From positions 3,060,001 through 3,092,000 of the forward strand of contig NC_009664.2 of the NCBI RefSeq assembly GCF_000017305.1: DNA of 32,000 bases, written 5' to 3'. The notes under the pieces were generated by a model that saw nothing but the letters and a program-made list of their open reading frames with translations, was not told the DNA's origin and ran no database searches. Each line of letters begins with the position of its first letter. Position 1 is the stretch's first letter. Source of the stretch: Kineococcus radiotolerans SRS30216 = ATCC BAA-149. Lineage in GTDB: Bacteria; Actinomycetota; Actinomycetes; Actinomycetales; Kineococcaceae. Below are positions 6,348-22,531 of this stretch, one piece after another. The position numbers were made by a program, and so were the translations under genes.

Positions 6348-6962
6348 GTGCCCGACACCGCTCCGCTCCGGCTGGCCCTCCTCGGCGACTCCCTGGCCGC
6401 GGGGGTGGGCGCGGCCGACGCCCGGGACACCCCGGGGCCCCTGCTGACCGCCGACCTGGTGGCCGCCGGGATCCCCGCCGAGCACCGGGTGTTCGCGGTG
6501 TCCGGGGCCCGCAGCACGGCGCTGGCGGGGCAGGTCGCCGCGGCGGGGACGTGGCCGCAGGTCGCGGTGGTCGTCGTGGGCGCCAACGACCTCACCCACG
6601 CCGTCCCGGTGGCGCAGGCCGTGGCCGAGCTCGCCGCGGCCCTCACCGCCCTGCGCGCCACCGGCGCGGAGGCCGTCCTCGTCCCGGCCCCGGACCTGAG
6701 CGTCGTCGCCCACGTCCCCCCGGCGCTGCGCGAGTTCGCCCGCACCGCCAGCGCGCAGCTGCGCACCGCGCAGACCCGCGCCGCCGCCGCGGCGGGGGTC
6801 GCCGTGGCGGACACCTCCGCCGCCGCGGCGGTGTTCGCCCGCGACCCCTCGATGTTCTCGCCGGACCGGTTCCACCCCTCCGCCGCGGGGTACCGGGTGA
6901 TCGCCGCCGACGTCGCCCCGCTGGTGCGGGCGGCCGCGCGCACCGCCCTCGGCGCCGCCTGA
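6348..6962 (+). CDS. SGNH/GDSL hydrolase family protein
   Basis: 204 aa. Block I LLGDSLAAG (nucleophile Ser), block III GANDL and block V DRFHPS (Asp/His). No obvious signal peptide. Confidence 0.85.
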   Translation: MPDTAPLRLALLGDSLAAGVGAADARDTPGPLLTADLVAAGIPAEHRVFAVSGARSTALAGQVAAAGTWPQVAVVVVGANDLTHAVPVAQAVAELAAALTALRATGAEAVLVPAPDLSVVAHVPPALREFARTASAQLRTAQTRAAAAAGVAVADTSAAAAVFARDPSMFSPDRFHPSAAGYRVIAADVAPLVRAAARTALGAA

Positions 6963-6974: not shown

Positions 6975-7217
6975 ATGAGCTTGGAGGACGCTGCGTCGTG
7001 GGCCACGATCCTCGGCGGTGTCGCGGTCCTCGCCGCGTTCCTGCGCGGCTGCGTCCTGGTGGCGATGAAGTACCACGCCCGCGAGGTCCGCCGCTGGACG
7101 GCGACCGAGGAGGGCCTGGACGGCGGGCGGCTGCGGTGGTGGAACTGGGTCCGGGCCCGCTGGCGCCTGCTGTGGGCGACGGGCCGGTTGCGGACCCGCC
7201 GCGAGGTGCGGGAGTAG
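6975..7217 (+). CDS. hypothetical small membrane protein (one predicted TM helix)
   Basis: 80-aa ATG ORF with good GC3 bias. It has a hydrophobic stretch WATILGGVAVLAAFLRGCVLVAM followed by an Arg/Trp-rich tail. No recognisable family, and it fills the gap between the SGNH gene and glgX. Confidence 0.35.
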   Translation: MSLEDAASWATILGGVAVLAAFLRGCVLVAMKYHAREVRRWTATEEGLDGGRLRWWNWVRARWRLLWATGRLRTRREVRE

Positions 7218-7255
7218 ATCGACTCGCGCGACGCCCCGGTAGGCCTCAGGATCCG

Positions 7256-9277
<2,022 letters not shown>

Positions 9278-9299
9278 CCGCTCCGCAGCTCCTCGGCGG

Positions 9300-9336
9300 G
9301 GACCCCGCCGGACGCCACGGGCGCCCGGCGGGGTCC
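9300..9336. terminator. hairpin between convergent glgX and RDD genes
   Basis: 12-bp perfect stem GGACCCCGCCGG (9300-9311) / CCGGCGGGGTCC (9325-9336) with a 13-nt loop. It lies between the stops at 9277 (+) and 9358 (-). Confidence 0.4.
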
Positions 9337-9357
9337 TGTCGCGTCCGGGCTCCCCGG

Positions 9358-10176
9358 TCAGCCCCGGCCGATCGAGCGTTCCAGGTCGCGGGTGCGGGCC
9401 TCGCGCCGCTGCATCCGCACCAGTTCGCGGTCGCGGCGCTCGACGAGGACGGCGACGAGGAACCGCTCGGGGTCGGTGCCGGCCGGCGGGGCGGGGGAGA
9501 CGTGCAGCAGCAGCGCGTCGGCCAGCTCCACGCCCAGCGCCGTGCGCGAGGCCGGGTTCAGCGTCGCGGTGCGGGCCAGGAACTGGCGGGCGGCGGTCAC
9601 CACGGGCAGCGGGAGCCGCCCGATGTCGGCGGTGCGCGCCCAGCCGGCCAGTTCCGGGGGCATCGGCGGCAGCGGCACGTGCCGGGCCGCGGTGCGCTCG
9701 CGCACGACGTAGGTCCCGGCCAGCAGGTCGCCGACCCGCTTGCCGCGACGGGTGACCAGGGCCGAGATGATCGCGGGGCTGCCCGCCAGCCCCCACAGCT
9801 CGAACAGGCCCACGACGGCGCGGACCAGGCAGTGCCGGAACCGGACCGGGCCCCCGTCGTCGCGGACGACGCGCACCCCCAGGACGAGCTTGCCGACCGT
9901 CCGCCCGCGGGTGGCGGTCTCCACCGCGACGGGGATGCCGATCAGGCACAGCGCGCTCTCGGCGAGGGTGATCGCCGCGTACGCCGCCTCGTCGGTCTCC
10001 GACAGCAGCACCGAGGTGCCCCAGAGCAGCGCGGCGAACACGACGCCGACGATCACGGCGTCCAGCAGCGCGGCCAGCATGCGGGAGGCGAACGACGCGG
10101 CCCGCAGCCCCAGCACCACGGCCTCGCCGGTGACGATCTCCCCGACGGGCTCACCGACCGGGCCAGCAGCGCTCAC
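9358..10176 (-). CDS. RDD family protein (Rv3695-like membrane protein)
   Basis: The C-terminal 272 aa of the 9358..10971 ORF, starting at GTG 10174-10176. It has TM segments, the RGRTVGKLVLGVRVVRDDG motif typical of RDD domains, and a soluble tail. Upstream of that GTG the frame turns into Arg/Pro/Gly shadow sequence overlapping the GrpB gene. Confidence 0.85.
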   Translation of the reverse strand: MSAAGPVGEPVGEIVTGEAVVLGLRAASFASRMLAALLDAVIVGVVFAALLWGTSVLLSETDEAAYAAITLAESALCLIGIPVAVETATRGRTVGKLVLGVRVVRDDGGPVRFRHCLVRAVVGLFELWGLAGSPAIISALVTRRGKRVGDLLAGTYVVRERTAARHVPLPPMPPELAGWARTADIGRLPLPVVTAARQFLARTATLNPASRTALGVELADALLLHVSPAPPAGTDPERFLVAVLVERRDRELVRMQRREARTRDLERSIGRG

Positions 10177-10244
10177 CCCGCCACCGTACCCAGGGTGCGG
10201 GTGCCGCGGCCCGGGCCCACCGGCGCGAGCCGGGCGCGGTGGTC

Positions 10245-10838
10245 TCAGGCCCGGCGCCCCCACGCCTCGAACTCCTCCTGCACCTCGTCGAAGAACGCCG
10301 TCTTGGCCAGCGTGTAGCCGTCGTAGTCGGCGTCCCCGGCGTGGGCGGCGGCGGTGGCGGTCTTGAACGCGGCGTAGCGGTCCCGGGCCTCGGGGTGCGC
10401 GCGCAGCCAGTCGCGGAACCACACGGTGTACCGGCCCCACGGCGAGGCGCTCAGGCGGACGTGCAGGATCGACGCCCCCGGCCCGTCGAGGTCGTGGACG
10501 AACAGCCGCTTGCGCCACACCTCCTCCGGCACGACCTCGCTCCCGCGCGGGATGTCGCGGTGGACCCCCGGGGAGTCCGGGCGCGACCCGGTGGTGGGGA
10601 CGAAGCCGGCCGGGGCCAGCGCCCGGTCCAGCACTTCGGGCCGCGGCAGCTCGCGGACGCGGACCTGCAGGTCGACGTAGGCCTTGGCCCGCAGCCCGGG
10701 CACCGAGGTGGAACCGATGTGGTCGTGGGACTCGGCCACCCCCAGCGGCTCCAGCGCCCGCCGCACCGCGGCGAGCAGCTCGGCCGCCCGTCCGGGCCAG
10801 GCGGGGTCGTAGGGGTGCAGCACCGCGGGTCCAGGCAC
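10245..10838 (-). CDS. GrpB family protein (UPF0157)
   Basis: LHPYDPAWP..., HIGSTSVPGLRAKAYVDLQV, HVRL..SPW......FRDWLRAHPE.RD.Y...K match the GrpB pattern. I prefer the start at GTG 10836-10838 (197 aa). The longer ORF to 10955 would overlap the divergent peptidase start. Confidence 0.8.
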   Translation of the reverse strand: MPGPAVLHPYDPAWPGRAAELLAAVRRALEPLGVAESHDHIGSTSVPGLRAKAYVDLQVRVRELPRPEVLDRALAPAGFVPTTGSRPDSPGVHRDIPRGSEVVPEEVWRKRLFVHDLDGPGASILHVRLSASPWGRYTVWFRDWLRAHPEARDRYAAFKTATAAAHAGDADYDGYTLAKTAFFDEVQEEFEAWGRRA

Positions 10839-10943
10839 CCCCGGACGGTACCGGCGCGGCGGGGGCCCCCGCCGCGACCCGCCGCCGCGGCTCCGCCCGC
10901 CCCCGGGTGCCCGGGGGGCCGCGGCCGGGTGGACGATGCCGGG

Positions 10944-12875
10944 ATGGACGAGCACGGGGCCTGGCGCTCACCCCTCACCGCCGCCGCCGTCGCCTCGACG
11001 GGCCTGCGCCTGAGCGGCGTCGCCCTCGACGCCGCGGGCCGGGCCTGGTGGTCCGAGGGCCGCCCCGCCGAGGGGGGCCGGGTGGCGGTCCTGCGGCGCG
11101 AGCCCGACGGCCGGGTCGTGGAGGCCGCCCCCGGCCTCGACGCCCGCACGCGCGTGCACGAGTACGGCGGCGGGGCCTGGGGCCTGGTCCGCGACGCGCG
11201 GGGGGAGACCGGGGCGGTGCTGGCCTCGGCGAGCGACCAGCGCTGGTTCCACGCCGCGGCGGGGCGCCCGCCGCGGCCGCTGACCCCCGCCGACGGCGTC
11301 CGCTACGCCGACCCCGACCAGGCCGGCGACGGGATCGTCCTGGTGGCCGAGGACGTGCGCGAGGGGGTTCCGCGCCGCTCGCTGGTGCACGTCCCCCTCG
11401 ACGGGTCCGGCCCGCGGGAGTTGTTCGAGGGCCCGCGGTTCCTGGCCGCGCCGCGCGTCTCCCCGGACGGCTCCCGGCTGGTCTGGACCAGCTGGGAGCA
11501 CCCGGACATGCCCTGGCAGTCGACCCTGCTCTGGGAGGCGCGCCTGGACGTCGCGGCGGGGCAGCTGTCCGACGTGCGGGTCCTGGCGGGGCGGGACCGG
11601 CGCGAGTCGCTGGTGCACCCGGGGTTCGCGCCCGACGGCACCGTCCTCGTCGTCAGCGACCGCAGCGGCTGGTGGAACCTGCACGAGGTGGGCCCCGACG
11701 GCGGGTTGCGCCCGCTGCTGGCCGAGGCCGCCGACCAGGGGTTCCCGCCGTGGGTGTTCGCGACGACGTCCTGGGCGGCGCTGGACGCCGACCGGGTCGC
11801 GCTGGTCCACGCCGCCGACGTCGGCTACCGCCTCGACGTGGTCCACCGCGCCGGCGGCCGCGTCGAGGCGCTCGACCTGCCGTTCACGGCCTACGCGCCG
11901 GTGCTGGCCGGCGGGGGAGGCCGCGTCGTCGCCGTGGCCGCGTCCCCCACCGCCCCCGCCGCCGTCGTCGTCGTCGACCCCGCCGACCCCGCCGACCCCA
12001 CCGCCCCCGCCGTCGACGTCGTCCGCGTCTCCGCGGCGGCCCCGGACCCCGCGCACCTGCCGGTGCCGCAGCCCCTCTCCCTGCCCAGCGCCGGCGGGCG
12101 CACCGTCCACGCCCACCGCTACCCGCCGACCCACCCCGACCACCCCGACGCCGGGGCCGCCCCGCACGTCCTGTTCGTGCACGGCGGCCCGACCGCGCAG
12201 TCGCAGGCCGCGTACTCCCCGGAGGTCGCGTTCTTCACCTCCCGCGGCATCGGCGTCGTCGACGTCCAGTACGGCGGGTCCACCGGTTACGGCCGCGCCT
12301 ACCGCGAGGCCCTGGACGGGAACTGGGGGGTCGTCGACGTGGAGGACTGCACCGCTGTGGCCCGCTGGCTGGTCGAGGAGGGTCTCGCCCCGCCCGGCCG
12401 GGTCGGGATCCGCGGCGGCAGCGCGGGGGGTTTCACCGTCCTCGCCGCGCTCACCGGCACCGACGCGTTCTCGGCGGGGACCTCGTACTACGGCGTGGCC
12501 GACCTGCGGGCGCTGGCCGCCGAGACCCACGACTTCGAGTCCCGCTACCTGGACTCCCTCGTCGGTCCGCTGCCCGCGGCCGAGGACGTCTACGTGGAGC
12601 GCGCGCCGCTGTCCCACGTCGACGGCCTGTCCTGCCCGGTCCTGCTGCTGCAGGGCGCCGACGACCCGGTGGTGCCGCGCTCGCAGGCCGAGGCGTTCGC
12701 GGCGGCCCTGCACCGCAAGGGGTTGCCGCACGCGCTGGTCGTCTTCCCCGGCGAGCAGCACGGGTTCCGGCGGGCCGAGAACGTCGCCGCCGCCCTGGAG
12801 GCCGAGCTGTCCTTCTACGGGCAGGTGTGGGGCTTCGACCCGCCGGGGGTCCCGCGGCTGCACCTCGACGGCTGA
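10944..12875 (+). CDS. S9 family peptidase (prolyl oligopeptidase/acylaminoacyl-peptidase-like)
   Basis: 643 aa from ATG 10944 within the 10239..12875 frame. The N-terminal region is beta-propeller-like. The C-terminal alpha/beta hydrolase carries the nucleophile elbow GGSAGGF, Asp in LLLQGADDPVVP and His in FPGEQHGF. Confidence 0.9.
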   Translation: MDEHGAWRSPLTAAAVASTGLRLSGVALDAAGRAWWSEGRPAEGGRVAVLRREPDGRVVEAAPGLDARTRVHEYGGGAWGLVRDARGETGAVLASASDQRWFHAAAGRPPRPLTPADGVRYADPDQAGDGIVLVAEDVREGVPRRSLVHVPLDGSGPRELFEGPRFLAAPRVSPDGSRLVWTSWEHPDMPWQSTLLWEARLDVAAGQLSDVRVLAGRDRRESLVHPGFAPDGTVLVVSDRSGWWNLHEVGPDGGLRPLLAEAADQGFPPWVFATTSWAALDADRVALVHAADVGYRLDVVHRAGGRVEALDLPFTAYAPVLAGGGGRVVAVAASPTAPAAVVVVDPADPADPTAPAVDVVRVSAAAPDPAHLPVPQPLSLPSAGGRTVHAHRYPPTHPDHPDAGAAPHVLFVHGGPTAQSQAAYSPEVAFFTSRGIGVVDVQYGGSTGYGRAYREALDGNWGVVDVEDCTAVARWLVEEGLAPPGRVGIRGGSAGGFTVLAALTGTDAFSAGTSYYGVADLRALAAETHDFESRYLDSLVGPLPAAEDVYVERAPLSHVDGLSCPVLLLQGADDPVVPRSQAEAFAAALHRKGLPHALVVFPGEQHGFRRAENVAAALEAELSFYGQVWGFDPPGVPRLHLDG

Positions 12876-12886
12876 CTCCCGCCGGG

Positions 12887-13570
12887 TCAGCCCCCCCAGC
12901 TCTCGCGCCGCCGGTCGAGGCCGAGCGCGAACACCTCGAACGCCGCGTCGACCCGCGCGGTGTCGCCGGTGAGGAGCCGGTCCAGCACCAGGCCGCGCAG
13001 GGTGCCCAGCACCAGCGTCGCCAGCGCCCCCGCCTCCGGCGGCGGGCAGCCGGCGCGCACCAGGGCGGCCTCCAAGAGCCCGGTGCGCCGGTGCAGCGAG
13101 CGGCGCACCGCCGCGGCCAGCGCCTCGTCGTGCAGGGCGTTCCCGGTGATGGCCAGGAACAGCCGCACGTGCGCCTCACCGCTGCCGGTGGTGGCCTGCT
13201 GCCACAGCGCGCGCAGCGGGCCGCCTTCGGTCCCGGTGCGCTGCTCGTTCGCGAGCACCCTCGGCCCGGTGAAGGTCCGGTCCAGGACGCGTTCGACGAT
13301 CTCGGCGACGAGCTTCTCCCGGGTGCCGAAGTGGTGCAGCAGCGCGGCGTGGCCGACCCCGGCGCTGTCGGCGATGCGGCGCAGGGACAGCCGGGCCGGG
13401 CCGTGCTCGAGGGCGTGCTCGGTGGCGGCCTGCAGCAGCTCCTCGCGGCGGTGGCGGTAGCGCAACCGCCGTCCGTCCACCCGTTCCGGTTCCTCGTCCC
13501 CCGCGCTCCCCACGGCGCGAGGGTAACCGCGGGAGGCGCCGCCGGGGGTTCCCCGAGATTGCTTGACCAC
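12887..13570 (-). CDS. TetR/AcrR family transcriptional regulator
   Basis: HTH region REELLQAATEHALEHGPARLSLRRIADSAGVGHAALLHHFGTREKLV, then a helical ligand-binding domain. The maximal ORF starts at GTG 13568-13570. An alternative GTG at 13511-13513 (208 aa) would leave a 204-bp divergent intergenic region and seems at least as plausible. Confidence 0.88.
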   Translation of the reverse strand: MVKQSRGTPGGASRGYPRAVGSAGDEEPERVDGRRLRYRHRREELLQAATEHALEHGPARLSLRRIADSAGVGHAALLHHFGTREKLVAEIVERVLDRTFTGPRVLANEQRTGTEGGPLRALWQQATTGSGEAHVRLFLAITGNALHDEALAAAVRRSLHRRTGLLEAALVRAGCPPPEAGALATLVLGTLRGLVLDRLLTGDTARVDAAFEVFALGLDRRRESWGG

Positions 13571-13592
13571 TCGGTCAGTCCATCGCTACCTT
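13563..13592 (+). promoter_or_regulatory. candidate sigma70/HrdB-type promoter of the cutinase gene, overlapped by a short palindrome (possible TetR operator)
   Basis: TTGACC (13563-13568), an 18-nt spacer, then TACCTT (13587-13592, TAnnnT). The inverted repeat TGACC-ACTC-GGTCA (13564-13577) overlaps the -35 hexamer and spacer. This is pattern matching only; the arms are just 5 bp. Confidence 0.3.
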
Positions 13593-13717
13593 GTCGCCCA
13601 CGCCAGGGGTCGAGGTTCCCGGGCGGGGCCAGACGCGGAACGCGGGGGGCCCCGCGCGCCCGGGTCGTCCACCGGCGTCCCCCCGTCGCAGCACCACGTC
13701 CCCCGGAGAGCCGTTCG

Positions 13718-14614
13718 ATGCCGAACACCCTCGTGCGCCCGTCCCGGCGCCGTTCCGCCCGCGGGTTCCGCGCCTCGCTGGCCGCCAGCGCCGTCGCCCT
13801 GCCCCTCCTCGTCGGCGTCGCCCCGGCCGAGGCCGCCACCAACCCCTACGAGCGCGGTCCGGCGCCCACGAACACCTCGGTGGAGGCGACGCGCGGTTCC
13901 TTCGCGGTCTCCACCACGACCGTGTCGAACTTCGCCGCCACCGGCTTCGGCGGCGGCACGATCTACTACCCGACCTCCACCACCTCCGGCACCTTCGGCG
14001 CCGTGGTGATCGCCCCCGGCTACACCGCCAGCCAGTCGAGCATGGCCTGGTACGGACCCCGCCTGGCCTCCCAGGGCTTCGTGGTGTTCACCATCGACAC
14101 CGAGGGCCGCTACGACCAGCCCGCCTCCCGCGGTGACCAGCTCCAGGCCGCGCTGACGTACCTGACCCAGCGCAGCACCGTCCGCACCCGCGTCGACGCG
14201 AGCCGCCTGGCCGTCATGGGCCACTCCATGGGCGGCGGCGGCACCCTCGAGGCCGTCAAGGACAACCCGGCCATCAAGGCCGCCATCCCGCTGACGCCCT
14301 GGAACCTGGACAAGACCTGGCCGGAGATCAGCACCCCCACGCTGATCGTCGGTGCGGAGAACGACTCCACCGCGCCGGTCGCCTCGCACTCCGAACCGTT
14401 CTACGGCTCCATCCCCACCGCCACCGACAAGGCCTACCTGGAGCTGCGCGGCGCCAGCCACTTCGCGCCGAACAGCGCGAACACGACGATCGCGAAGTAC
14501 AGCATCAGCTGGCTCAAGCGCTACGTCGACGACGACACCCGGTACACCCAGTTCCTCTGCCCGGCCCCGGGCACGAGCCTGGCGATCAGCGAGTACCGCA
14601 GCACCAACTGCTGA
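13718..14614 (+). CDS. secreted cutinase / polyester (PET) hydrolase-like alpha/beta hydrolase, type I (TfCut2/LCC-like)
   Basis: 298 aa, with GGAGAG as RBS 8 nt upstream of ATG 13718. The signal peptide ends APAEA|ATNPYERGP. The mature sequence follows Thermobifida fusca cutinase block by block: NPYERGP, GFGGGTIYYP, PGYT, GHSMGGGG, AAIPLTPW, PTLIVGAENDSTAP, GASHFAPN, DTRYTQFLCP, EYRSTNC. Confidence 0.93.
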   Translation: MPNTLVRPSRRRSARGFRASLAASAVALPLLVGVAPAEAATNPYERGPAPTNTSVEATRGSFAVSTTTVSNFAATGFGGGTIYYPTSTTSGTFGAVVIAPGYTASQSSMAWYGPRLASQGFVVFTIDTEGRYDQPASRGDQLQAALTYLTQRSTVRTRVDASRLAVMGHSMGGGGTLEAVKDNPAIKAAIPLTPWNLDKTWPEISTPTLIVGAENDSTAPVASHSEPFYGSIPTATDKAYLELRGASHFAPNSANTTIAKYSISWLKRYVDDDTRYTQFLCPAPGTSLAISEYRSTNC

Positions 14615-14626
14615 TCCGCTGACGGC

Positions 14627-14662
14627 CCGGCGCGGGCGGGGAGGGCACCCCGCCCGCGCCGG
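14627..14662 (+). terminator. strong hairpin downstream of the cutinase gene
   Basis: Perfect 15-bp stem CCGGCGCGGGCGGGG (14627-14641) / CCCCGCCCGCGCCGG (14648-14662) with a 6-nt loop. It starts 13 nt after the stop and ends 17 nt before the next start. Confidence 0.55.
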
Positions 14663-14678
14663 CCACTAGCCTGAACCC

Positions 14679-15677
14679 GTGGACGTCGACGCCTTCCGAG
14701 CGGTGCACGAGCACGAGTGGTCGCGCCTGCGCCGTCTCGTCGGCCAGCGCCACCTCACCGGCCAGGAGGCCGACGAGCTCGTCGTCCTCTACCAGCGGAC
14801 GGCCACCCACCTGTCCTCGCTGCGCTCGGCGCAGTCCGAACCGGTCCTGCTCGACGAGCTGTCCACCGCGCTGGTCCGCGCCCGCGCCCGGCTCACCGGT
14901 TCCCGCTACACCGCGTGGCGCCAGGTCGTGCACTTCACCACCCGCGGGCTGCCCGCGGCGCTGTGGCGGGTGCGGTGGTGGACGACGGGCGCCGCCGCCT
15001 ACACAATTCTGCTCGCCGTGGTCGCCGGGGCCTGGATGGCCGGCGACCCCGCCGCCCAGGCCAGCCTCTTCGGCTCCGACGAGGAGGTCCGCCGGCTCGT
15101 GGAGTCCGACTTCGCCGGGTACTACTCCGAGTACGGGCACGCGTCCTTCGCCGGGCGGGTCTGGACGAACAACGCGATGGTCGCCGCGACGTGCATCGCC
15201 CTGGGCATCACCGGGGTCTTCGTGCTGGTGGCCCTCACCACCAACGCGGTCAACGTGGGCCTGCAGGGCGGGCTGCTCATCGACAACGACCGCGGGGAGC
15301 TGTTCTTCGGCCTTATCCTGCCCCACGGCCTGCTCGAGCTCACGGCCGTCTTCGTCGCCGCCGGCGCCGGGACGAAGCTGTTCTGGGCGTGGGTGTCACC
15401 GGGGGCGCGCAGCCGCGCGCAGGCCCTCGCGACCGAGGGCCGGGCGATGATGGGCGTCGCCCTCGGCCTCGTCGTCGTGCTCTTCGTCTCCGGGGTCATC
15501 GAGGGTTTCGTCACCCCCTCGGGGTTGCCGACGTGGGCGCGCATCGGCATCGGGGCCCTGGCCGAGGTCGCGTTCCTCACCTACGTCCTCGTCCTGGGCC
15601 GGCCCGCGGCGCGGGCGGGGGAGACCGGCGACCTCGAGGAGAGGTTCGCCGGCGACACCGCCCCCGTCAGCGGCTGA
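14679..15677 (+). CDS. stage II sporulation protein M-like integral membrane protein (DUF95, Rv3694c-like)
   Basis: 332 aa with a GTG start. The N-terminal soluble helical region (FRAVHEHEWSRLRRLV...LVVLYQRTATHLS) and multiple TM helices with LPHGLLELTAVFVAAGAG match the SpoIIM/DUF95 pattern. It belongs to the conserved RDD/DUF58/MoxR neighbourhood. Confidence 0.85.
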   Translation: MDVDAFRAVHEHEWSRLRRLVGQRHLTGQEADELVVLYQRTATHLSSLRSAQSEPVLLDELSTALVRARARLTGSRYTAWRQVVHFTTRGLPAALWRVRWWTTGAAAYTILLAVVAGAWMAGDPAAQASLFGSDEEVRRLVESDFAGYYSEYGHASFAGRVWTNNAMVAATCIALGITGVFVLVALTTNAVNVGLQGGLLIDNDRGELFFGLILPHGLLELTAVFVAAGAGTKLFWAWVSPGARSRAQALATEGRAMMGVALGLVVVLFVSGVIEGFVTPSGLPTWARIGIGALAEVAFLTYVLVLGRPAARAGETGDLEERFAGDTAPVSG

Positions 15678-15728
15678 GCGAACGCCCACCCGGGGCGTCC
15701 CGTCCGCCCGGCACCGAGGGGCCCGGGC

Positions 15729-17105
15729 TCAGGACCCGCCGCTGCCCAGCAGGCTGCGGGTCAGCGCCTCGGCGTCGGAGAGCAGTTCCTCCAAGGCGGT
15801 GCGCACGTCCCCGTCGCGGACCTCGTGACCGGCCTCGGCGCCCACCAGCACGGCCCGGCGCAGCAGCTCCCGCGCGAAGCTCGCGGTGACCCCGGCGGAC
15901 CGGGCGGCGGCCTCGCGCAGCACCTCGTCGGAGACCCCGAGACCGCGCGCGTAGAGCCGGAACAGGGCGTGGCGCGCGGCCTCGTCGGGCAGCGGGACCT
16001 CCACGGCCAGGTCGACCCGGCCCGGGCGCTGGGCCAGGGCCCGCTCCAGCAGGTCGGCGCGGTTCGTGGTCAGCAGGAAGGCGACGTCGGCGTCGCCGTC
16101 GAGGCCGTCCATGGCGTCCAGCAGCTCGAACAGCAGGGGCCGTTCGCCGGGGGACTGGCCGCGGTCCTCGGCGACGAGGTCGCAGTCCTCCAGGACGACG
16201 ATCGCGGGCTGCATCGCTCGGGCCAGGTGCGCGGCCGTCGTGACCAGGGCCAGCGACTGCCCGGAGAGCAGCACCACGGTGCTGTCCCGGGCGCGGGAGA
16301 CGAGGTGGCGCACGGTCAGGGTCTTGCCCGTTCCGGGCGGGCCGTAGAGCAGGACCCCGCGCTTGAGGTGCTGCCCGGCCCGCGCCAGCCGCTGCGCGTG
16401 GGCGCCCACCCCGACGACGTGGCGGGCGATGCGCTCCAGCGCGCCGTCGGGCAGGACGACGTCCTCCGCGCTCACCTCCGGCCGGTGCAGGAAGGTGATC
16501 CCGGCGTTGTGGGGCTCGTAGGGCGACCCGGAGAACGACAGCACCTGCCCGCGCAGCACGCTGCGCTCGAGCATCGTCCGGCGCACCTCGGCGATGAACC
16601 GCGGGACGACGTCCTCCTCGGGGCAGGCGACCTCGAACCCGGCGGGATGCCCGCTGTGGCGCTGCGCCGCACGCTGCAGCACCGCGACCGGGTGGCCCTC
16701 GAACCGCAGCATCCGCACGCCCAGGCCGACGGCGCGTCGGGTGGTGTCCGGGCCGGTCGGCAGGTTCACCCGGTCCACTGCCCCGGTCCCGAACCGGCCG
16801 AACTGCTCGGAGAGGAGGTCGGAGAAGCTCTGGTGGTGGCGCTGGTCCCCGCCGCCCACGCCGACGACCTCCTCGCCGCCGCCGTGCTCGGCCAGCAGGG
16901 TCAGGGCGAGGTCGAGGTCGACGTACTGGTGCTCGGGAACCTCCTCGCGCACCACCGGCACCTCCCGCGCCGCCACCCCCAGGAAGGCGCCGACGACGTC
17001 CCCGACCGAGGGGCGGGAGTCGTCGGCGTCGACGCGCTGGGAGTGCACGACGTCGTCGAGGAAGCGGCGGATCGAGCGGGCCAGGTCACGGGTCTCGGCG
17101 TCCAC
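15729..17105 (-). CDS. AAA family ATPase (classical AAA clade, Bcs1-like ED Walker B) with an uncharacterised ~230-aa N-terminal domain
   Basis: 458 aa. Walker A LLYGPPGTGKTL, Walker B AIVVLEDCD, sensor-1 LLTTN, and second region of homology with Arg finger ALAQRPGRVD, followed by a helical lid. I cannot assign residues 1-230 to any family. No TM helix is evident. Confidence 0.9.
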   Translation of the reverse strand: MDAETRDLARSIRRFLDDVVHSQRVDADDSRPSVGDVVGAFLGVAAREVPVVREEVPEHQYVDLDLALTLLAEHGGGEEVVGVGGGDQRHHQSFSDLLSEQFGRFGTGAVDRVNLPTGPDTTRRAVGLGVRMLRFEGHPVAVLQRAAQRHSGHPAGFEVACPEEDVVPRFIAEVRRTMLERSVLRGQVLSFSGSPYEPHNAGITFLHRPEVSAEDVVLPDGALERIARHVVGVGAHAQRLARAGQHLKRGVLLYGPPGTGKTLTVRHLVSRARDSTVVLLSGQSLALVTTAAHLARAMQPAIVVLEDCDLVAEDRGQSPGERPLLFELLDAMDGLDGDADVAFLLTTNRADLLERALAQRPGRVDLAVEVPLPDEAARHALFRLYARGLGVSDEVLREAAARSAGVTASFARELLRRAVLVGAEAGHEVRDGDVRTALEELLSDAEALTRSLLGSGGS

Positions 17106-17112
17106 GCCGCGA

Positions 17113-18093
17113 TCATGGCCGTGCGGTGAACCCCGCGGCCAGCGACTTCCGGAAACCGGTGAGGTTCCCGCGGGACCGGTCGAGGTGGACGCCGCCGGTC
17201 AGCAGCACCAGGCAGGAGCCCGACCGCGGGTCCAGCAGCAGCGAGGCTCCGGTGGACCCGCTGCGTCCCGAGGAGTCCGGGGCGGGCATCCACGTCGGGT
17301 CCCCGACCGGCAACCCCTCCCCGCGGCGCACCCGCGCCCACGCGGCGGGCGGCAGCAGGGTGCCCTCCAGCAGCGCCCGGCCCAGGGCGTGGACCTCCTC
17401 GGCCGTCCCGAACAACCCCGCGTTCCCGGCCGGGCGGCGCAGCGAGGCGGCCAGCCCGTCGTGCACCACCCCGCGGGCGGTCCCGCCCCCGGTCGCCAGG
17501 ACCGGGCCGGCCACCGGCGCGCCGGCCGTCCCGAACACCGGGCCGCGCAGGCCCAGGGGAGCGGTGACGAACTCCTCGACCAGGGCGTCCAGCCCCTGCC
17601 CGGTGGCCTCCTCCACGAGGTGCCCCGCGACCACGTACCCCACCCGCGAGGGGCGGGTCACCGTCCCGGGCGCGGACTCCAGCGGTGCGTCCAGCACCCG
17701 CTGCAACCGCTGCGCGGGACGCAGGTCCCCGCGGTGCCGGGCGTCGGAGTCCGCGGGCAGGCCGGAGGTGTGGGCCAGCAGCTGGGCCAGGGTGAACCCC
17801 CGCCCGGTCGGGCGGTCCAGGTCCACCGCCCCCACCTCGGCCAGGGCGTGGACGACCACCGCGGTGAACACCTCCGTCACCGCGCCGAGGTCGGCGCGGG
17901 TCCCCGGCGTCACCGGGTCCGGGTCGCCGGGGGCGAGGGTCCCCGCCACGGCCCGCCGCACGGTGCCGTCGGCGGCGGAGGACACCGCGCTCGCCCCGGG
18001 GAACGACCCGGCCCGCACCCCGGCGCGCAACGCGGCCCGCAGCGGCGCGCCCGGGTCATCCAGGTCGCCCGGGCCCCCGCTGCCGCCGCTCAC
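17113..18093 (-). CDS. beta-lactamase-fold (serine hydrolase family) protein, predicted non-catalytic
   Basis: 326 aa from GTG 18091-18093, which overlaps the upstream ABC stop as GTGA. The backbone follows the PF00144 pattern (..DLGAVTEVFTAVVVHALAEVGAVDLD.., TLAQLLAHTSGLP, PGT...PSRVGYVVAGHLVEEATGQGLDALVEEFVTAPLGL, AGLFGTAEEVHALGRALL, GRSGSTGASLLLDP..G.CLVLLTG). The SxxK, YxN and K/H-T/S-G positions read AVTE, PSR and RSG. The ORF extension to 18249 was rejected because it overlaps the ABC gene. Confidence 0.8.
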   Translation of the reverse strand: MSGGSGGPGDLDDPGAPLRAALRAGVRAGSFPGASAVSSAADGTVRRAVAGTLAPGDPDPVTPGTRADLGAVTEVFTAVVVHALAEVGAVDLDRPTGRGFTLAQLLAHTSGLPADSDARHRGDLRPAQRLQRVLDAPLESAPGTVTRPSRVGYVVAGHLVEEATGQGLDALVEEFVTAPLGLRGPVFGTAGAPVAGPVLATGGGTARGVVHDGLAASLRRPAGNAGLFGTAEEVHALGRALLEGTLLPPAAWARVRRGEGLPVGDPTWMPAPDSSGRSGSTGASLLLDPRSGSCLVLLTGGVHLDRSRGNLTGFRKSLAAGFTARP

Positions 18094-19976
18094 GGCTCGG
18101 CGACCGCGCCGGGGACCGTCCCGGCCGGCCGGCCGGGGTGCGACCAGGTGCTCCACAACCGGGCGTAGCGGCCCCCGCGCGCCAGCAGGTCCGCGTGGCT
18201 GCCGAGCTCGACGACCTCCCCGGCCTCCACGACCGCGATGGCGTCGCACACCGCGGCCTGGCTCAGCCGGTGCGCCACCACCAGCGCCGTCCGCCCCGCC
18301 ACGACGGCGAGCGCCGCCTGCTCCAGGTCGCGGGCCCCCGCGCTGCCGGCCTCGGCGGTCGCCTCGTCCAGCACGACCACGGGCGGGTCGCGCAGCACGA
18401 CCCGGGCCAGGGCCAGCTGCTGGCGCCGCGCCGGGGACAGCGGGAGCTCCCCCGGCCCGACCCGGGTGCCCAGGCCCTCGGGCAGGGCGCTCACCCAGTC
18501 GTCGGCCCCGACCACGCCCAGCGCCCGGTGCAGGTCCTCGTCGGTGGCGTCGGGGCGGGCCAGGGTGAGGTCCTCGCGCAGGGTGCCGGTGAACACGTGG
18601 GACTCCTGGGCGATGACCCCGATGCGCTCGCGCACGGCGGCGGCGTCCAGGTCGGCGAGGTCCACCGCGCCCTGCGCCCCGACCAGCTCGACGCGGCCGG
18701 CGGTGGGGGGGAAGACCCCGCCGACGATCGCGGCCAGCGTCGTCTTGCCCGCCCCGCTGCCGCCGACGACGGCCAGCGACGTCCCCGCGGGCACGTCGAG
18801 GTCCACCGCGCGCAGGACCAGGTCGGGGTCCTCGCCCGGGGAGGGGTCGGCGTAGGCGTGCGACACCCCGCGCACCCGCAGCGCCACCGCGCGGCGGGGC
18901 GCGCGCTCCAGCGCCCCCGGGTCCGCGTCCGGTGCGTCCGGCAGGTCCACGACCCCGACGAGCCGGCCCAGCGCGGCGGCGGCGCGCTGCACCTCGTCGA
19001 AGCTCAGCAGCAGCGCGCCGAGCGGCCCGAACAGCCGGTGGAACAGCAGCGCCGCGGCCGTCACGTCCCCGACGCTGACGTCCCCGCCGCGGACCAGGAG
19101 GAACCCGGTGAGCAGCAGGCTCGACAGCCCGACCGCCTCGGCGCCGTTCATCGACACCGCCAGCCGCGCGAAGGTCCGCAGCGCCGCCAGCGACGCCCCG
19201 ATCGTCCGCTCGGAGGCGACCTCCACGCGCCGGCCCTGCAGCGCGGCCATCCCGTAGGCGTGGACGGTGGAGGCGCCGTGGAAGGACTGCAGCACCACCT
19301 GCGAGCGCCGCGCCGCGACGGCCCGCTCGGCCGCGTACAGCGGCCCCGACCTCGGCAGGTACCCGCGCAGGCTCAGCGCGTAGACGGGGAAGACGGTGCA
19401 GAAGGCCAGGGCCAGGCGCCAGTCCAGGGAGACGAAGCCCGCCGCCGACAGCACGACGGTCAGGGCGGAGGTGAGGACGGTGGCGCCCAGCTGCACCGAG
19501 GAGGTGAACAGCTCCACGTCCTCGGTGACGCGGGAGGCCACGTCCCCGGACCCGGCCCGTTCCAGGACCCGCGGCGACATGCGCAGCGAGCGCTCCACGA
19601 CCCGCTCGCGCAGGTCGGCGGCGATGCTCGCCCCGAGGCGCTCGGCGTCGCGGCGGGCCAGCGCGCTCGCCACCGCCGTCGCGACCGCGACCAGCGCCAG
19701 CAGCACCAGGACGGGGGTGAGGGACGTCCCCGCCCGCACGACGTCGACGGCGCGGCCCAGCAGCAGGGGCAGGGCCACGGTGCCCGCGCTGGCCAGCGCC
19801 GTCGTCACCAGGGCCGCGGCGAGCTCCCCGGGGTGGGCGGTGGCGGTGCGGGCCAGCACGGCCGCGCTTCGGCGGCCGGTGGCCACGGGCAGCGCGCGCT
19901 GCCCGCCGTCCCCCGCCGGGGTCCCCGCCCCGTCCCCCGTCCCGGGCCCCGTGGTGGTCCCCGCCGGGGCGCTCAC
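18090..19976 (-). CDS. ABC transporter permease/ATP-binding protein (type IV exporter half-transporter; canonical ATPase motifs, degenerate signature)
   Basis: 628 aa from GTG 19974-19976, which overlaps the upstream stop as GTGA. It has six-TM exporter-type TMD features. The NBD carries Walker A GGSGAGKTT, Q-loop IAQE, Walker B VVVLDEAT and H-loop LVVAHRL, but the signature is LSPARRQQ instead of LSGGQ. The remaining 5' part of the 1435-aa track ORF is shadow sequence. Confidence 0.9.
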   Translation of the reverse strand: MSAPAGTTTGPGTGDGAGTPAGDGGQRALPVATGRRSAAVLARTATAHPGELAAALVTTALASAGTVALPLLLGRAVDVVRAGTSLTPVLVLLALVAVATAVASALARRDAERLGASIAADLRERVVERSLRMSPRVLERAGSGDVASRVTEDVELFTSSVQLGATVLTSALTVVLSAAGFVSLDWRLALAFCTVFPVYALSLRGYLPRSGPLYAAERAVAARRSQVVLQSFHGASTVHAYGMAALQGRRVEVASERTIGASLAALRTFARLAVSMNGAEAVGLSSLLLTGFLLVRGGDVSVGDVTAAALLFHRLFGPLGALLLSFDEVQRAAAALGRLVGVVDLPDAPDADPGALERAPRRAVALRVRGVSHAYADPSPGEDPDLVLRAVDLDVPAGTSLAVVGGSGAGKTTLAAIVGGVFPPTAGRVELVGAQGAVDLADLDAAAVRERIGVIAQESHVFTGTLREDLTLARPDATDEDLHRALGVVGADDWVSALPEGLGTRVGPGELPLSPARRQQLALARVVLRDPPVVVLDEATAEAGSAGARDLEQAALAVVAGRTALVVAHRLSQAAVCDAIAVVEAGEVVELGSHADLLARGGRYARLWSTWSHPGRPAGTVPGAVAEP

Positions 19977-21517
19977 CGGGCCACCGCCGCGGCGTAGCCG
20001 GGGTCGGCGAGCAGGTCGGCGTGGCGGCCGGTGCGGTGCCGGCCGTCCCCGTCGAGGAGCACCACCCGGTCGCAGCGGGCCAGCAGCAGCGGGGAGGTGG
20101 TGATCAGGACCGTCGTGCCGGTCCCGGCCCGCACCGCGCGCAGGCCGGCGGCGACGCGGTCCTCGGTGACGGCGTCCAGGGCCGTCGTGGGGTCGCGCAG
20201 CACCAGCAGCTCGCGGTCGGCGGCCAGCGCCCGGGCCAGGCCGATGCGCTGGCGCTGGCCGCCGGAGTAGTTGGCGCCGCCGTCGGCGAGGGGGGTGGTG
20301 AGGTCCTCGGGGGCGGTCGCGGCGCGCAGGGCGTCGGCCAGGGCGATCCCGCGCCCGGCCGGGGCGGGGCCGGTGTCGAGGGCGTCGGCGAGGGTGTCGC
20401 CGAGCAGGTGCGTCTCGGCCGGCTCGACGAGGACCCCGCCGCTCCCGTCCGCGCCGCCGGCGAACGCGAACGCGGCCGTGACGGCGTCGGCGGTGGCGGT
20501 GTCCGTCGTCACCACCCCCAGCACCTCCCCGGCCACCGCCCGCACCGGCGGCGCGGGCACCGCCGCGGCCGGGGCGGCGGGGGTCTCCAGGACCTCCGCG
20601 ACGCGGCGCGCGCTGGCCCGCGACACCGCCAGCTGCTGGACGCACTGGCTGACGTTGCGCACGGGGTCGGCCAGGAAGCTGGCCATCCCGACGACGGTGA
20701 CGAACTCGCCGACGCTCAGGCGCCCCTGCTGCACGAAGGCGCCCGCGACGGCCGCGGTGGCGACGAGGACCGCGCCGGTGGCCAGGGTGCTGACGCCGAC
20801 GACGACGGAGGTCGCCCCGGCCGCCTGGACCGCGGCCCGCCGGGAGGTGCGGCTCGCGGAGCGGTAGCGGCGCACGGCCTCGGGGACCCCGCCGAAGCCG
20901 CGCAGCGGCCGCAGCCCGGCGAGCAGGTCGGCGGCGACGGCGGCGGCGAGGCCGGCGCTGCGCTGGCGGGTGTGCATCCGCGCCTCCAGGCGGGGGGCGA
21001 GGGCCTGCAGCCCCAGGACCAGGACGGGGACGCAGAGCAGCAGGCCGAGCCCGAGCGCCACGTCGATGCGCAGCAGCACGACGGCCGCGACGAGCATCCC
21101 GAAGCAGCCCGAGACCCCGAAGCTCAGCAGGCCCAGGGCCTCCGCGGCGTGGCGGGTGTCCGAGGTCGCCACCGACAGCGCCTCCCCGACCTGCCGGTCG
21201 CGCAGCACCGCCGGGTCGCGCAGCACCGCGCGGGCCACGGCGGTGCGCAGGAAGTGCGCCTCGGCGAACTGCGCCTTGTCGATCGTCCAGAACGCGAAGG
21301 CCCCCGCGGTGGCGAGGACGGTGAACAGCGCGAGCACCGCCAGGACGGAGACGACGATCGCGGGGGTGTCCCCGGTGCGCACGGCCCCGTCGACCACGGC
21401 GCCGATGGCGACGGGCACGAGGGCCTCGCAGGTCTGGTGCAGCATCGAGGACCCGCAGCCGACGGCGGCCGCGCGGGGGTGGCGCCGCAGGACGTCGGCG
21501 ACGGGGCGGGAGGACAC
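19973..21517 (-). CDS. ABC transporter permease with a degenerate, shortened nucleotide-binding domain (no Walker A)
   Basis: The exporter-type TMD is followed by an NBD remnant. It has an intact signature YSGGQRQRIGLARAL, but Walker A is replaced by VVTTDTATAD, Walker B reads LLVLRDPTT, and the H-loop reads VLITTSP. The whole protein contains only one Lys. I prefer the start at GTG 21515-21517 (514 aa). The track ORF start at 21691 would overlap the divergent DUF72 gene. Confidence 0.8.
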   Translation of the reverse strand: MSSRPVADVLRRHPRAAAVGCGSSMLHQTCEALVPVAIGAVVDGAVRTGDTPAIVVSVLAVLALFTVLATAGAFAFWTIDKAQFAEAHFLRTAVARAVLRDPAVLRDRQVGEALSVATSDTRHAAEALGLLSFGVSGCFGMLVAAVVLLRIDVALGLGLLLCVPVLVLGLQALAPRLEARMHTRQRSAGLAAAVAADLLAGLRPLRGFGGVPEAVRRYRSASRTSRRAAVQAAGATSVVVGVSTLATGAVLVATAAVAGAFVQQGRLSVGEFVTVVGMASFLADPVRNVSQCVQQLAVSRASARRVAEVLETPAAPAAAVPAPPVRAVAGEVLGVVTTDTATADAVTAAFAFAGGADGSGGVLVEPAETHLLGDTLADALDTGPAPAGRGIALADALRAATAPEDLTTPLADGGANYSGGQRQRIGLARALAADRELLVLRDPTTALDAVTEDRVAAGLRAVRAGTGTTVLITTSPLLLARCDRVVLLDGDGRHRTGRHADLLADPGYAAAVAR

Positions 21518-21671
21518 GTCGGAGGAGCCTATGCGACCCCGCTCCCGCCCCCGGGTGGACGAGCGGGCGGGCCGGGTCCCGCGCCCGGGCGATCGCGGGC
21601 CCCGGTGCGGGGCCGTAGGGTGCGACCGCCGCGGCGCGCTCGGTGCCCGCGGGGACGGGACGGGGGCCGGG

Positions 21672-22415
21672 GTGACCATCCGCGTCGGCACCTCCGGGTG
21701 GAGCTACGACCACTGGGAGGGCGTGCTCTACCCGCCCGGCACGCCCGCCCGCGACCGGCTGGCCCTCTACGTGCGCGAGTTCCCCACCGTGGAGCTGAAC
21801 GCCAGCTTCTACCGCTGGCCCCGCGACGCCTCGTTCGCCTCGTGGCGGCGCCGGCTGCCCGAGGGGTTCGCCCTCTCGGTCAAGGCGCCGAGGGGGCTCA
21901 CCCACGCCAAGCGGCTCCAGGCCCCGGAGGCGTGGGCGCAGCGGATGTCCGCCTCCTGGCACGAGCTGGGTCCCCGGCGGGCGGTGCTGCTGGTGCAGCT
22001 GCGTCCCGACCACGCCCGCGACGACGACCGCCTGCGCTCCTTCCTGGACCGCCTCCCGCCGTGGATGCGGGTGGCGGTGGAGTTCCGGCACCCGAGCTGG
22101 CACGAGGAGGCGGTGTTCGCCCTGCTCGCCGAGCGCGGCGTCGGCTACTGCGTGATGAGCGGCGCGCACCTGCCCTGCGTGCTGCGGGTGACGGCGCCGT
22201 TCGCGTACGTGCGCCTGCACGGCCCCGACCACGACCACCTCTACGCGGGGTCGTACTCGGGGGCGGACCTGGCGTGGTGGGCGGACCGGATGCTCGAGTG
22301 GGAGGCGGGCGGGATCGAGGTCCACGCCTACTTCAACAACGACGGCGGCGGCAACGCGGTGCGCGACGCGCGGGGGCTCATCGCGGCCCTGGGCCACCGG
22401 TCCGGGGGGTCGTGA
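21672..22415 (+). CDS. DUF72 domain-containing protein (UPF0759/YecE-like)
   Basis: 247 aa from GTG 21672. IRVGTSGWSYDHWEGVLYP......L..Y...F.TVELNASFYR, VEFRHPSW and YVRLHGP....Y.G.Y are the typical DUF72 blocks. Confidence 0.88.
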   Translation: MTIRVGTSGWSYDHWEGVLYPPGTPARDRLALYVREFPTVELNASFYRWPRDASFASWRRRLPEGFALSVKAPRGLTHAKRLQAPEAWAQRMSASWHELGPRRAVLLVQLRPDHARDDDRLRSFLDRLPPWMRVAVEFRHPSWHEEAVFALLAERGVGYCVMSGAHLPCVLRVTAPFAYVRLHGPDHDHLYAGSYSGADLAWWADRMLEWEAGGIEVHAYFNNDGGGNAVRDARGLIAALGHRSGGS

Positions 22416-22468
22416 CGCGAGACCCCGGCCCCCCCGTCCCCCCGCGGCGGGTCACCGCCACCGACGAG

Positions 22469-22510
22469 GGCGAGCCCCCGCCCCGGCGGGTGCCGGGACG
22501 GGGGCTCGCC
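22469..22510. terminator. compound hairpin between convergent DUF72 and GH9 genes
   Basis: Outer perfect 12-bp stem GGCGAGCCCCCG (22469-22480) / CGGGGGCTCGCC (22499-22510). It encloses an inner 6-bp stem CCCGGC/GCCGGG with a 4-nt loop. Confidence 0.5.
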
Positions 22511-22531
22511 GACGGGGCGGGGTTCCCGGGG

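Follow-up and report, generated by a model that had tools for sequence, protein, structure and literature searches.

A predicted secreted type-I PET-hydrolase-like esterase of Kineococcus radiotolerans encoded in a compact cassette with a divergent tetR-family gene

What kind of ester hydrolase is encoded at positions 13718-14614 of a 32,000-nucleotide stretch of Kineococcus radiotolerans SRS30216 (contig NC_009664.2, positions 3,060,001 to 3,092,000 of the forward strand; hereafter the window), and does the tetR-family gene that diverges from it act as its regulator? An original prediction, made from the sequence letters, had called the product a type-I polyethylene terephthalate (PET) hydrolase-like cutinase with a divergent TetR, a putative promoter and a terminator of its own, all inside an accessory block. 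Our analysis makes it likely that the locus encodes a secreted, catalytically competent serine carboxylesterase of the type-I cutinase/LipA/PET-hydrolase-like kind, that this enzyme is under the divergent TetR, and that the two belong to a cassette that relocates.

Family and residue map of the hydrolase

To identify the closest structural relatives, we searched all Protein Data Bank (PDB) sequences with phmmer, which returned 183 matches, the best being the Streptomyces exfoliatus lipase 1JFR (E = 1e-125), with PET40 (8A2C) at E = 4e-125, both aligned over their full length, and TfCut2 (4CG1) at E = 3e-101. Other top matches were PHL7, Cut190, Est119 and the chains of 8ETX-8EU1, which carry the Foldseek label of reconstructed "ancestral PETases". 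Pfam placed residues 39-296 in PF12740 ("PET hydrolase-like") at 403.6 bits against a cut-off of 28, covering model positions 2-261 of 263, and the NCBIfam equivalog for BdeA (NF051441) scored 508.9 bits, narrowly under its curated cut-off of 520, which makes the protein a close homologue that is not filed as an equivalog. Mature-domain identities in a MAFFT alignment were 73.2% to 1JFR, 72.0% to PET40, 60.8% to TfCut2, 56.8% to LCC and 48.8% to IsPETase. The reference sequences were checked against the PDB: those of TfCut2 and IsPETase were identical to 4CG1 and 6QGC, respectively, and that of LCC differed from the engineered variant 8QRJ at five positions and matched wild-type 4EB0 over 36-293 (E = 1e-173).

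The open reading frame (ORF) runs on the plus strand from the ATG at 13718 to the TGA at 14612-14614, giving 298 codons and a precursor of 298 amino acids (aa). Its predicted position and the motifs quoted from it hold to the base in the translation, which contains ATNPYERGP, GFGGGTIYYP, PGYT, GHSMGGGG, AAIPLTPW, PTLIVGAENDSTAP, SHSEPF, GASHFAPN and FLCP...STNC, and the nucleophile proposed as Ser170 falls on the expected codon. The parts of the gene used below are as follows.

13705-13710 (+): Shine-Dalgarno sequence GGAGAG, 7 nucleotides (nt) 5' of the hydrolase ATG
13718-13834 (+): predicted signal peptide of 39 aa, from the charge and hydropathy profile and the 1JFR alignment
13835-14614 (+): mature alpha/beta-hydrolase domain with the stop codon, 259 aa, 27.5 kDa, pI 6.35
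14021-14023 (+): codon of Y102, oxyanion residue
14225-14227 (+): TCC codon of S170, nucleophile
14228-14230 (+): codon of M171, oxyanion residue
14300-14302 (+): codon of W195, clamp Trp
14363-14365 (+): codon of D216, catalytic acid
14387-14389 (+): codon of H224, His of the His/Phe pair
14399-14401 (+): codon of F228, Phe of the His/Phe pair
14459-14461 (+): codon of H248, catalytic base
14558-14560 (+): codon of C281, C-terminal Cys pair
14609-14611 (+): codon of C298, C-terminal Cys pair

Mapping these residues onto characterised enzymes, we found that the triad of S170 (in GHSMGGGG), D216 and H248 corresponds to S130/D176/H208 in TfCut2 and to S160/D206/H237 in IsPETase, and that it is invariant across the 16 homologues aligned. 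Together with phmmer and Pfam, the residue map confirms the triad, oxyanion residues, clamp Trp and family that had been proposed. Joo et al. (2018) are said to have defined the PET-hydrolase type by the positions of IsPETase Ser214 and Ile218 (subsite II), and there the window protein has H224 and F228, the His/Phe pair that had been pointed out. Compared further with IsPETase (type IIb), with which fold and triad are common, it has H169 and F249 at the W159 and S238 positions, and it has neither the second, type-II disulfide (Ala213 and Ala250 stand at C203 and C239) nor the 3-residue loop extension, the latter appearing as a 3-column gap opposite the IsPETase 'SNQ' in the beta8-alpha6 loop that is common to TfCut2, LCC, 1JFR and PET40. 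C281 and C298 are the sole cysteines of the protein, in line with the single C-terminal pair that had been claimed. One disulfide, shorter loops and an actinomycete origin are named as type-I features in passages of PMC12432417 that summarise Joo et al. 2018, and the hydrolase, as read from the alignment, carries all the sequence features of a type-I PET hydrolase.

Within the type-I group, TfCut2 (4CG1) and LCC (4EB0) have all diagnostic residues in common with the window protein (Y, H-S-M, W, D, H...F, H-F, one disulfide and PLTPW). 1JFR, which is LipA of S. exfoliatus M11 and is also secreted, has the same length, triad, Met oxyanion residue, clamp Trp and His/Phe pair, and the C-terminal Cys is shared, although its chain as printed by HMMER ends before the second Cys; PET40, a metagenome esterase of Amycolatopsis/Streptomyces, shows the same type-I architecture. 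Two positions set 1JFR and PET40 apart from the window protein: the oxyanion/aromatic residue is Phe in both, where the window protein has Tyr102, and the clamp Trp is preceded by Gly, where the window protein has Pro194. At each of the two, the window protein matches TfCut2 and LCC.

The alpha/beta-hydrolase fold is near-certain because of the 73% identity to 1JFR. An AlphaFold2 (AF2) model built from the 16-sequence alignment was poor, with a mean predicted local distance difference test (pLDDT) score of 57.7, a predicted template modelling (pTM) score of 0.64 and residues 194-256 below 50, probably owing to the shallow alignment, in which every row is at least 69% identical. Foldseek with this model put 8A2C and 1JFR first (E about 1e-27, template modelling (TM) scores of 0.62-0.71, root-mean-square deviation about 8 A), a ranking that agrees with the sequence evidence and adds nothing independent to it.

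Secretion, as had been predicted, is suggested by an N-terminus with six Arg in its n-region, the h-region LAASAVALPLLVGV and a predicted cleavage at AEA/AT (between A39 and A40), such that residue 40 of the precursor aligns with residue 1 of the 1JFR chain. The export route would be Sec or Tat (twin-arginine); Tat as such was considered and is not supported, the RR pair varying among orthologues (SRHR in Kineococcus DK018). The Shine-Dalgarno sequence GGAGAG is kept in 4/6 aligned Kineococcus loci, with a purine-rich variant in the remaining 2. G+C content at third codon positions (GC3) is 0.97, equal to that of the adjoining genes, which together with the unbroken frame argues for a live and native gene.

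As to how unusual the enzyme is, the original prediction had spoken of a divergent member of a small family akin to TfCut2 and LCC, and here the data point elsewhere. Among the candidates scored, more than 5,000 database proteins reach E <= 0.001, and the genome loci found number at least 580; a structure already solved in 1998 shares 73% identity with the protein; and its nearest relatives are the Streptomyces lipase/BdeA and PET40 lineage. Among the matches listed, the closest were Kineococcus proteins at 76-89% identity, a best value that does not signify novelty as the query's own 90% cluster is evidently not displayed there, followed by very many Streptomyces "bis(hydroxyethyl) terephthalate hydrolase" and alpha/beta-hydrolase entries at about 75%. 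A second K. radiotolerans assembly, GCA_014191015.1, has 99.1% DNA identity over window positions 8672-15679, and its hydrolase differs at three residues (V6A, T53A and V211F). The gene is thus already public and automatically assigned to PF12740, and we found no characterisation of it. The exact protein is also indexed in 46 blocks of Logan assemblies, the places shown being one numerically close run series (SRR5887127-SRR5887294) with the same neighbours as in the window; this series may be a K. radiotolerans resequencing or transcriptome set, and could then give transcript boundaries.

The divergent TetR and a conserved motif over the hydrolase promoter

The intergenic region and the tetR-family gene contain the following features.

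12887-13513 (-): tetR-family gene, 208 aa from the GTG at 13513; the longest ORF reaches 13570, a probable over-extension
13520-13525 (-): -10-like hexamer TACCCT, 6 nt upstream of the tetR GTG, putative in function
13558-13578 (no strand assigned): putative operator-like block ATTGCTTGACC-N4-GGTCAG, from intergenic conservation
13563-13592 (+): putative hydrolase promoter, with -35 TTGACC at 13563-13568, an 18-nt spacer and -10 TACCTT at 13587-13592

The product matches Pfam TetR_N (PF00440) at E = 3e-11 over 47/47 profile positions. Orthologue alignment puts its start at V20 of the longest ORF, which is the GTG at 13513; orthologues at that start have 206-209 aa, the gene as annotated in GCA_014191015.1 has the same length of 208 aa, and the called sizes of the divergent tetR in six other Kineococcus genomes are 206-240 aa. 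Its C-terminal domain gave weak matches to TetR_C_6, TetR_C_31 and TetR_C_13_2, all below the Pfam cut-off, and NCBIfam and PDB searches returned generic helix-turn-helix matches only, from which no subfamily or ligand could be named.

Running tblastn with the window TetR against 91 loci revealed an upstream, divergent orthologue in Kineococcus (62-82% identity), Nocardioides flavescens (51%), two Promicromonospora (54%) and a Kineosporia sp. (50%), which with seven Kineococcus loci (the window counted) makes 11 TetR-type loci. The divergent TetR of the original prediction is therefore not only present but co-conserved with the hydrolase in 11/11 loci of one clade. The other loci of the 91, from Streptomyces, Actinoplanes, Saccharothrix, Amycolatopsis, Lentzea, Actinomadura and Cellulomonas, gave no TetR orthologue by tblastn, and this includes the PET40-like Amycolatopsis loci. 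An unbootstrapped neighbour-joining (NJ) tree gathers the TetR-linked hydrolases into a single clade, distinct from a Streptomyces/Amycolatopsis clade that holds 1JFR and PET40; the TetR-linked clade also holds two Cellulomonas loci and one metagenome-assembled genome (MAG) locus in which the hydrolase has no TetR.

Streptomyces enzymes of this family are regulated differently. A 2025 review on how lipase genes are regulated describes LipR as the activator of the Streptomyces lipAR operon and makes no mention of TetR (PMC12134079). LipR-like tblastn matches were obtained in 61 loci, nearly all Streptomyces, and in neither the window nor any TetR-type locus. In the three Streptomyces loci checked by ORF listing and Pfam, the LipR-like product is a large LuxR/LAL-type protein encoded immediately downstream, with GerE in 3/3 and AAA_16 also in one. 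Thus, whereas Streptomyces LipA/BdeA enzymes (ScLipA, S2LipA and S92LipA) go with LipR regulation, the window has a divergent upstream TetR and no LipR, and the two architectures are mutually exclusive, which is a small new comparative observation. Separately, the K. rhizosphaerae locus encodes, at its positions 975-3899 and 2 kb upstream of the tetR-hydrolase cassette, a 974-aa AAA_16 + GerE (LAL-type) regulator that had no LipR-like tblastn match at E < 1e-10 and is probably unrelated to LipR.

Between the two genes, ATTGCTTGACC-N4-GGTCAG is the sole invariant block in an intergenic alignment of 6 Kineococcus loci, and it contains a palindrome (TGACC at 13564-13568 and GGTCA at 13573-13577) that overlaps the -35-like TTGACC. 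The looser form TTGACC-N4-GGTnn is present in 11/11 TetR-type loci. The strict palindrome TGACC-N4-GGTCA, at <=1 mismatch, was found in the window and the 7 other Kineococcus/Nocardioides loci checked, was absent from the 3 Kineosporia/Promicromonospora loci, where the right half-site is GGTAG, and occurred in 0/72 upstream regions of TetR-less loci. The 32-kb window has one exact copy; allowing <=1 mismatch gives 3 matches where 0.27 would be expected, and the 13564-13577 palindrome, read on both strands, makes up two of the three. The third, TCGACCCGCCGGTCA at 25945-25959 (+) with 1 mismatch, lies inside an ABC transporter gene and was set aside as probably a chance occurrence.

The promoter fared less evenly. 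None had been located in the original prediction beyond calling it putative, and a sigma-70 consensus scan of the region called none, yet the comparison of orthologous loci brought out a conserved TTGACC-N18-TACCTT, and TTGACC-N17/18-TAnnnT recurs in 11/11 TetR-type loci. The consensus behind the sigma-70 and terminator scans is that of E. coli, from which actinobacterial signals deviate, and we used phylogenetic footprinting instead. On the opposite strand, TAnnnT stands 6-7 nt before the tetR GTG in 11/11 TetR-type loci, which suggests a leaderless tetR mRNA. A riboswitch or other leader RNA element in the hydrolase 5' leader (13599-13717, about 118 nt) was considered and rejected, as folding is unremarkable (z = +0.35) and an Rfam search of the window gave no match.

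These observations bear directly on whether the TetR has anything to do with the hydrolase. It may be a mere neighbour, or have another target, with the motif being nothing other than a -35 box and the hydrolase being expressed constitutively or controlled from elsewhere. As an actinobacterial -35-like hexamer, TTGACC is indeed perfect, no characterised family scores above its cut-off for the C-terminal domain of the TetR, and the Cellulomonas and MAG loci sit inside the same unbootstrapped NJ clade without a TetR. A -35 box, however, has no need of a GGTCA/GGTAG half-site at a fixed 4-nt spacing in 11/11 loci, and the strict palindrome occurs in 0/72 TetR-less loci. The tetR-hydrolase pair, moreover, stays together in four genera and three orders as other neighbours change, and the edge of DNA homology coincides exactly with the tetR stop codon, which means that hydrolase and regulator genes travel as a single unit. 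We consider it quite improbable, then, that the TetR is a bystander, and we favour control of the hydrolase by the divergent TetR.

Cassette boundaries and the 3' hairpin

How far the unit extends was read from blastn of window positions 11000-17000 against six Kineococcus loci: homology starts at 12882-12921 and ends at 14605-14663, with none outside. Given this confinement to the span between the tetR stop codon and the end of a downstream hairpin (12887-14663), the unit is a discrete 1.78-kb cassette. Its other neighbours differ in every Kineococcus species, the contexts being these.

Kineococcus DK001: thiS/G/F genes and a toxin-antitoxin pair
K. gypseus: a sigma/anti-sigma pair and a sortase
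K. terrestris and Kineococcus DK018: hemB on one side and hemL on the other
K. rhizosphaerae: a neighbouring argininosuccinate synthase gene
Kineococcus G2: tetR-hydrolase adjacency confirmed by tblastn only

In the window, the cassette forms the right-hand part of a larger insertion, whose features and 3' hairpin are listed here.

10150-14663 (no strand assigned): accessory insertion relative to K. gypseus and K. terrestris, about 4.5 kb, with GrpB, the S9 peptidase and the tetR-hydrolase cassette
10245-10955 (-): GrpB gene
10719-12875 (+): S9 peptidase ORF, whose longest in-frame start overlaps the GrpB gene
14627-14662 (+): perfect 15-bp GC hairpin with a 6-nt loop (14627-14641/14648-14662), starting 13 nt past the hydrolase stop codon

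The RDD and SpoIIM-like genes, core genes that flank this insertion in the window, are adjacent in K. gypseus and K. terrestris, and the DNA of both species ceases to match the window at about 10149 and matches it again from 14664. The accessory block of the original prediction is borne out by this comparison, the tetR-hydrolase pair being missing from that site in both species, each of which retains its own copy of the cassette elsewhere. A recent foreign origin of the cassette was considered and finds no compositional signal, GC3 being 0.97 as in the neighbours. Spacing is tight, with 11 nt between the stop codons of the S9 peptidase and tetR and about 16-17 nt from the hairpin to the next start codon, so that flanking mobile-element repeats of any length would not fit, although no search for repeats was made.

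The hairpin was the third element of the original prediction, as a terminator with a 15-bp stem. The stem is there and is conserved in Kineococcus: folding of 14610-14680 gives a dG of -46.4 kcal/mol (z = -3.7), and six folded Kineococcus orthologous loci have an equivalent hairpin in the same place, with stem sequences that vary and pairing that is kept; three Kineococcus loci have a CCGGCGCGGGCGG core in it. The terminator part of the claim is less secure, as no U-tract follows the stem and the element goes uncalled in the consensus terminator scan. Hairpins without U-tracts are common as terminators in high-GC actinobacteria, and the element is likely to be a terminator or an mRNA-stabilising 3' end. 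As a side observation, the K. gypseus hairpin (about 6912-6955 of its locus) has unusual long G and C homopolymer runs, which could be an assembly artefact near a contig end.

One may ask instead whether the hairpin, lying where the cassette ends, is a repeat with a structural role or one related to recombination, or else a stabiliser of the 3' end, past which transcription continues into the SpoIIM-like gene. The missing U-tract and the silent consensus scan fit this, as do the start of the SpoIIM-like gene about 17 nt downstream on the same strand and the coincidence of the hairpin with the cassette/insertion boundary at 14663/14664. We nevertheless think it unlikely, since other Kineococcus loci also have a hairpin after the hydrolase stop, including those in which a convergent or unrelated gene comes next, and since stems of differing sequence keep their pairing. 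Our preference therefore remains with a hairpin that ends or protects the hydrolase transcript.

The wider window begins with DUF3499, manB-like, PGI-like, ahcY, GDSL lipase, GlgX-like and RDD genes, continues through GrpB, the S9 peptidase, tetR, the hydrolase and the SpoIIM-like gene, and goes on with an AAA ATPase, a beta-lactamase-like gene, two ABC transporters, DUF72, a GH9 cellulase (CBM4_9) and two further ABC transporters before ending in DUF58, MoxR and DUF4350. The S9 peptidase has 640 aa in GCA_014191015.1, which puts its real start near 10950-10960 (MDEHGAW...). A second esterase in the region is encoded by a GDSL-family lipase/acylhydrolase gene of 204 aa at 6348-6962 (+), 7 kb upstream of the hydrolase. 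In K. gypseus, DUF58-MoxR-DUF4350 come straight after the SpoIIM-like gene; in the window a second, larger insertion separates them (about 15700-28650) and holds the AAA ATPase, the beta-lactamase-like gene, the four ABC transporter genes, DUF72 and the GH9 cellulase, the last of secreted type with CBM4_9 and CelD_N domains (22532-24892, -). The AAA ATPase gene (15729-17105, -; 458 aa) comes directly after the SpoIIM-like gene and had only sub-threshold NCBIfam matches, one of them to the anti-phage ATPase IteA (58 bits, where the cut-off is 510). When window positions 15680-17195 are compared with 7001-9174 of the GCA_014191015.1 locus, NmrA-like and AraC-like genes replace the AAA ATPase, and a difference of this kind between 99%-identical assemblies marks a strain-variable spot.

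Proposed mechanism, expected activity and meaning

The comparisons above show the family of the enzyme, its intact catalytic residues, the co-conservation of regulator, motif and hairpin, and the edges of the cassette; from them we infer the following for secretion route, substrate range, repression and ligand. The 39-aa signal peptide would be removed to release a 27.5-kDa extracellular enzyme, in which Ser170-Asp216-His248 would act as the triad and the backbone amides of Tyr102 and Met171 would form the oxyanion hole; Trp195, His224 and Phe228 would line an open, lid-less groove, and a Cys281-Cys298 disulfide would tie down the C-terminus. Its natural substrates would likely be extracellular acyl esters and plant polyesters (cutin, suberin), and by analogy with tested relatives it may also hydrolyse bis(hydroxyethyl) terephthalate (BHET), aliphatic polyesters and, weakly, amorphous PET at mesophilic temperature. 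A TetR dimer would bind TGACC-N4-GGTCA over the hydrolase -35 box and block RNA polymerase by promoter occlusion, until released by a ligand, for which a lipid-like or ester-hydrolysis product is most plausible, by analogy only. The GC hairpin would then end or stabilise a monocistronic hydrolase transcript, and the unit of tetR, operator/promoter, hydrolase and hairpin would have moved between chromosomal sites within the genus. A bolder version, in which the 1.78-kb unit is a self-contained, relocating, inducible polyester-esterase switch whose TetR senses the enzyme's own products, e.g., the hydroxy-fatty acids of cutin and suberin or the dicarboxylate and aromatic monomers of synthetic polyesters, strikes us as speculative and rather doubtful.

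Several points weigh against the overall proposal. With its BdeA score just under the cut-off, the protein need not be a strict functional equivalent of the Streptomyces BHETases, and the AF2 model is too poor to add much. The conserved motif contains the -35 hexamer, so its conservation could partly reflect the promoter alone, and the GGTAG half-site makes for a weaker palindrome in Promicromonospora and Kineosporia. The operator, in addition, is some 40-55 bp away from the putative tetR -10, on its upstream side, and autoregulation is therefore not evident. At the 3' end, with no U-tract and the next gene about 16-17 nt on in the same strand, read-through is possible.

For the activity itself, the nearest guidance comes from tested relatives. 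Verschoor et al. 2024 (PMC11169514), who proposed the name BdeA, report that ScLipA, S2LipA and S92LipA hydrolyse BHET and roughen amorphous PET film, with the Streptomyces LipA variants having their optimum at pH 7 and 25 C and losing most activity above 40 C; the authors regard the PET and BHET hydrolysis of Streptomyces LipA as promiscuous, PET40 likewise being a promiscuous esterase (PMC11169514). These closest tested enzymes are mesophilic, and their PET activity is weak. TfCut2 and LCC are thermophilic whereas the host of the window protein is a mesophile, and we would therefore expect no thermostability. By analogy, then, we expect the window protein to be a secreted esterase/cutinase of mesophilic character whose action on PET is weak at best; the sole hints in its sequence that it might perform better than the Streptomyces enzymes are the TfCut2-like Tyr102 and Pro194.

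K. radiotolerans also has a published cutinase, KrCUT, which its original paper reportedly presents as a two-domain protein of a family of the PF01083 type. KrCUT is Krad_4111, has 294 aa and is homologous to the Mycobacterium tuberculosis cutinase-like protein Cut5 (PMC4503659), and passages of PMC11754424 credit it with degrading polycaprolactone (PCL) and poly(1,3-propylene adipate). That the window gene might be KrCUT was considered and rejected, given this difference in length and family.

The same literature gives weight to a plainer reading, in which the protein is a generic secreted lipase/esterase, an orthologue of LipA/BdeA that acts on soluble or short-to-medium-chain acyl esters and has no meaningful cutinase or PET activity. 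Among solved structures, its nearest relative 1JFR carries the label of a lipase in its deposition; the nearest enzymes with tested activity have BHET as their main substrate and do no more than roughen PET, activities that are called promiscuous (PMC11169514); and K. radiotolerans already has a separate, characterised cutinase in Krad_4111 (PMC4503659, PMC11754424). The groove speaks the other way, with every residue that defines type-I PET hydrolases present and with Tyr at the oxyanion/clamp position and Pro before the clamp Trp as in TfCut2 and LCC, where 1JFR and PET40 have Phe and Gly. This reading departs from ours in substrate range only, which sequence cannot settle, and we rate it as a serious possibility, if still the less probable one. 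On balance we keep to a cutinase- or PET-hydrolase-like esterase as the better description.

Taken as an enzyme, the window protein is ordinary, being one more mesophilic type-I PETase-like esterase in a family of thousands with dozens of crystal structures, and the practical interest for polyester degradation ascribed to it was rated too high, its value for plastic recycling being probably low. For K. radiotolerans, it adds a second, uncharacterised candidate polyesterase beside KrCUT, the only published cutinase of the species, which belongs to another family. Were the TetR ligand to be a polyester hydrolysis product, the module would be usable as a biosensor or an inducible expression cassette. 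What is new is that the hydrolase travels as a compact cassette with its own TetR instead of LipR, and, if our proposal is true, the TetR switch would be a regulatory solution for this enzyme family distinct from the LipR activator of Streptomyces.

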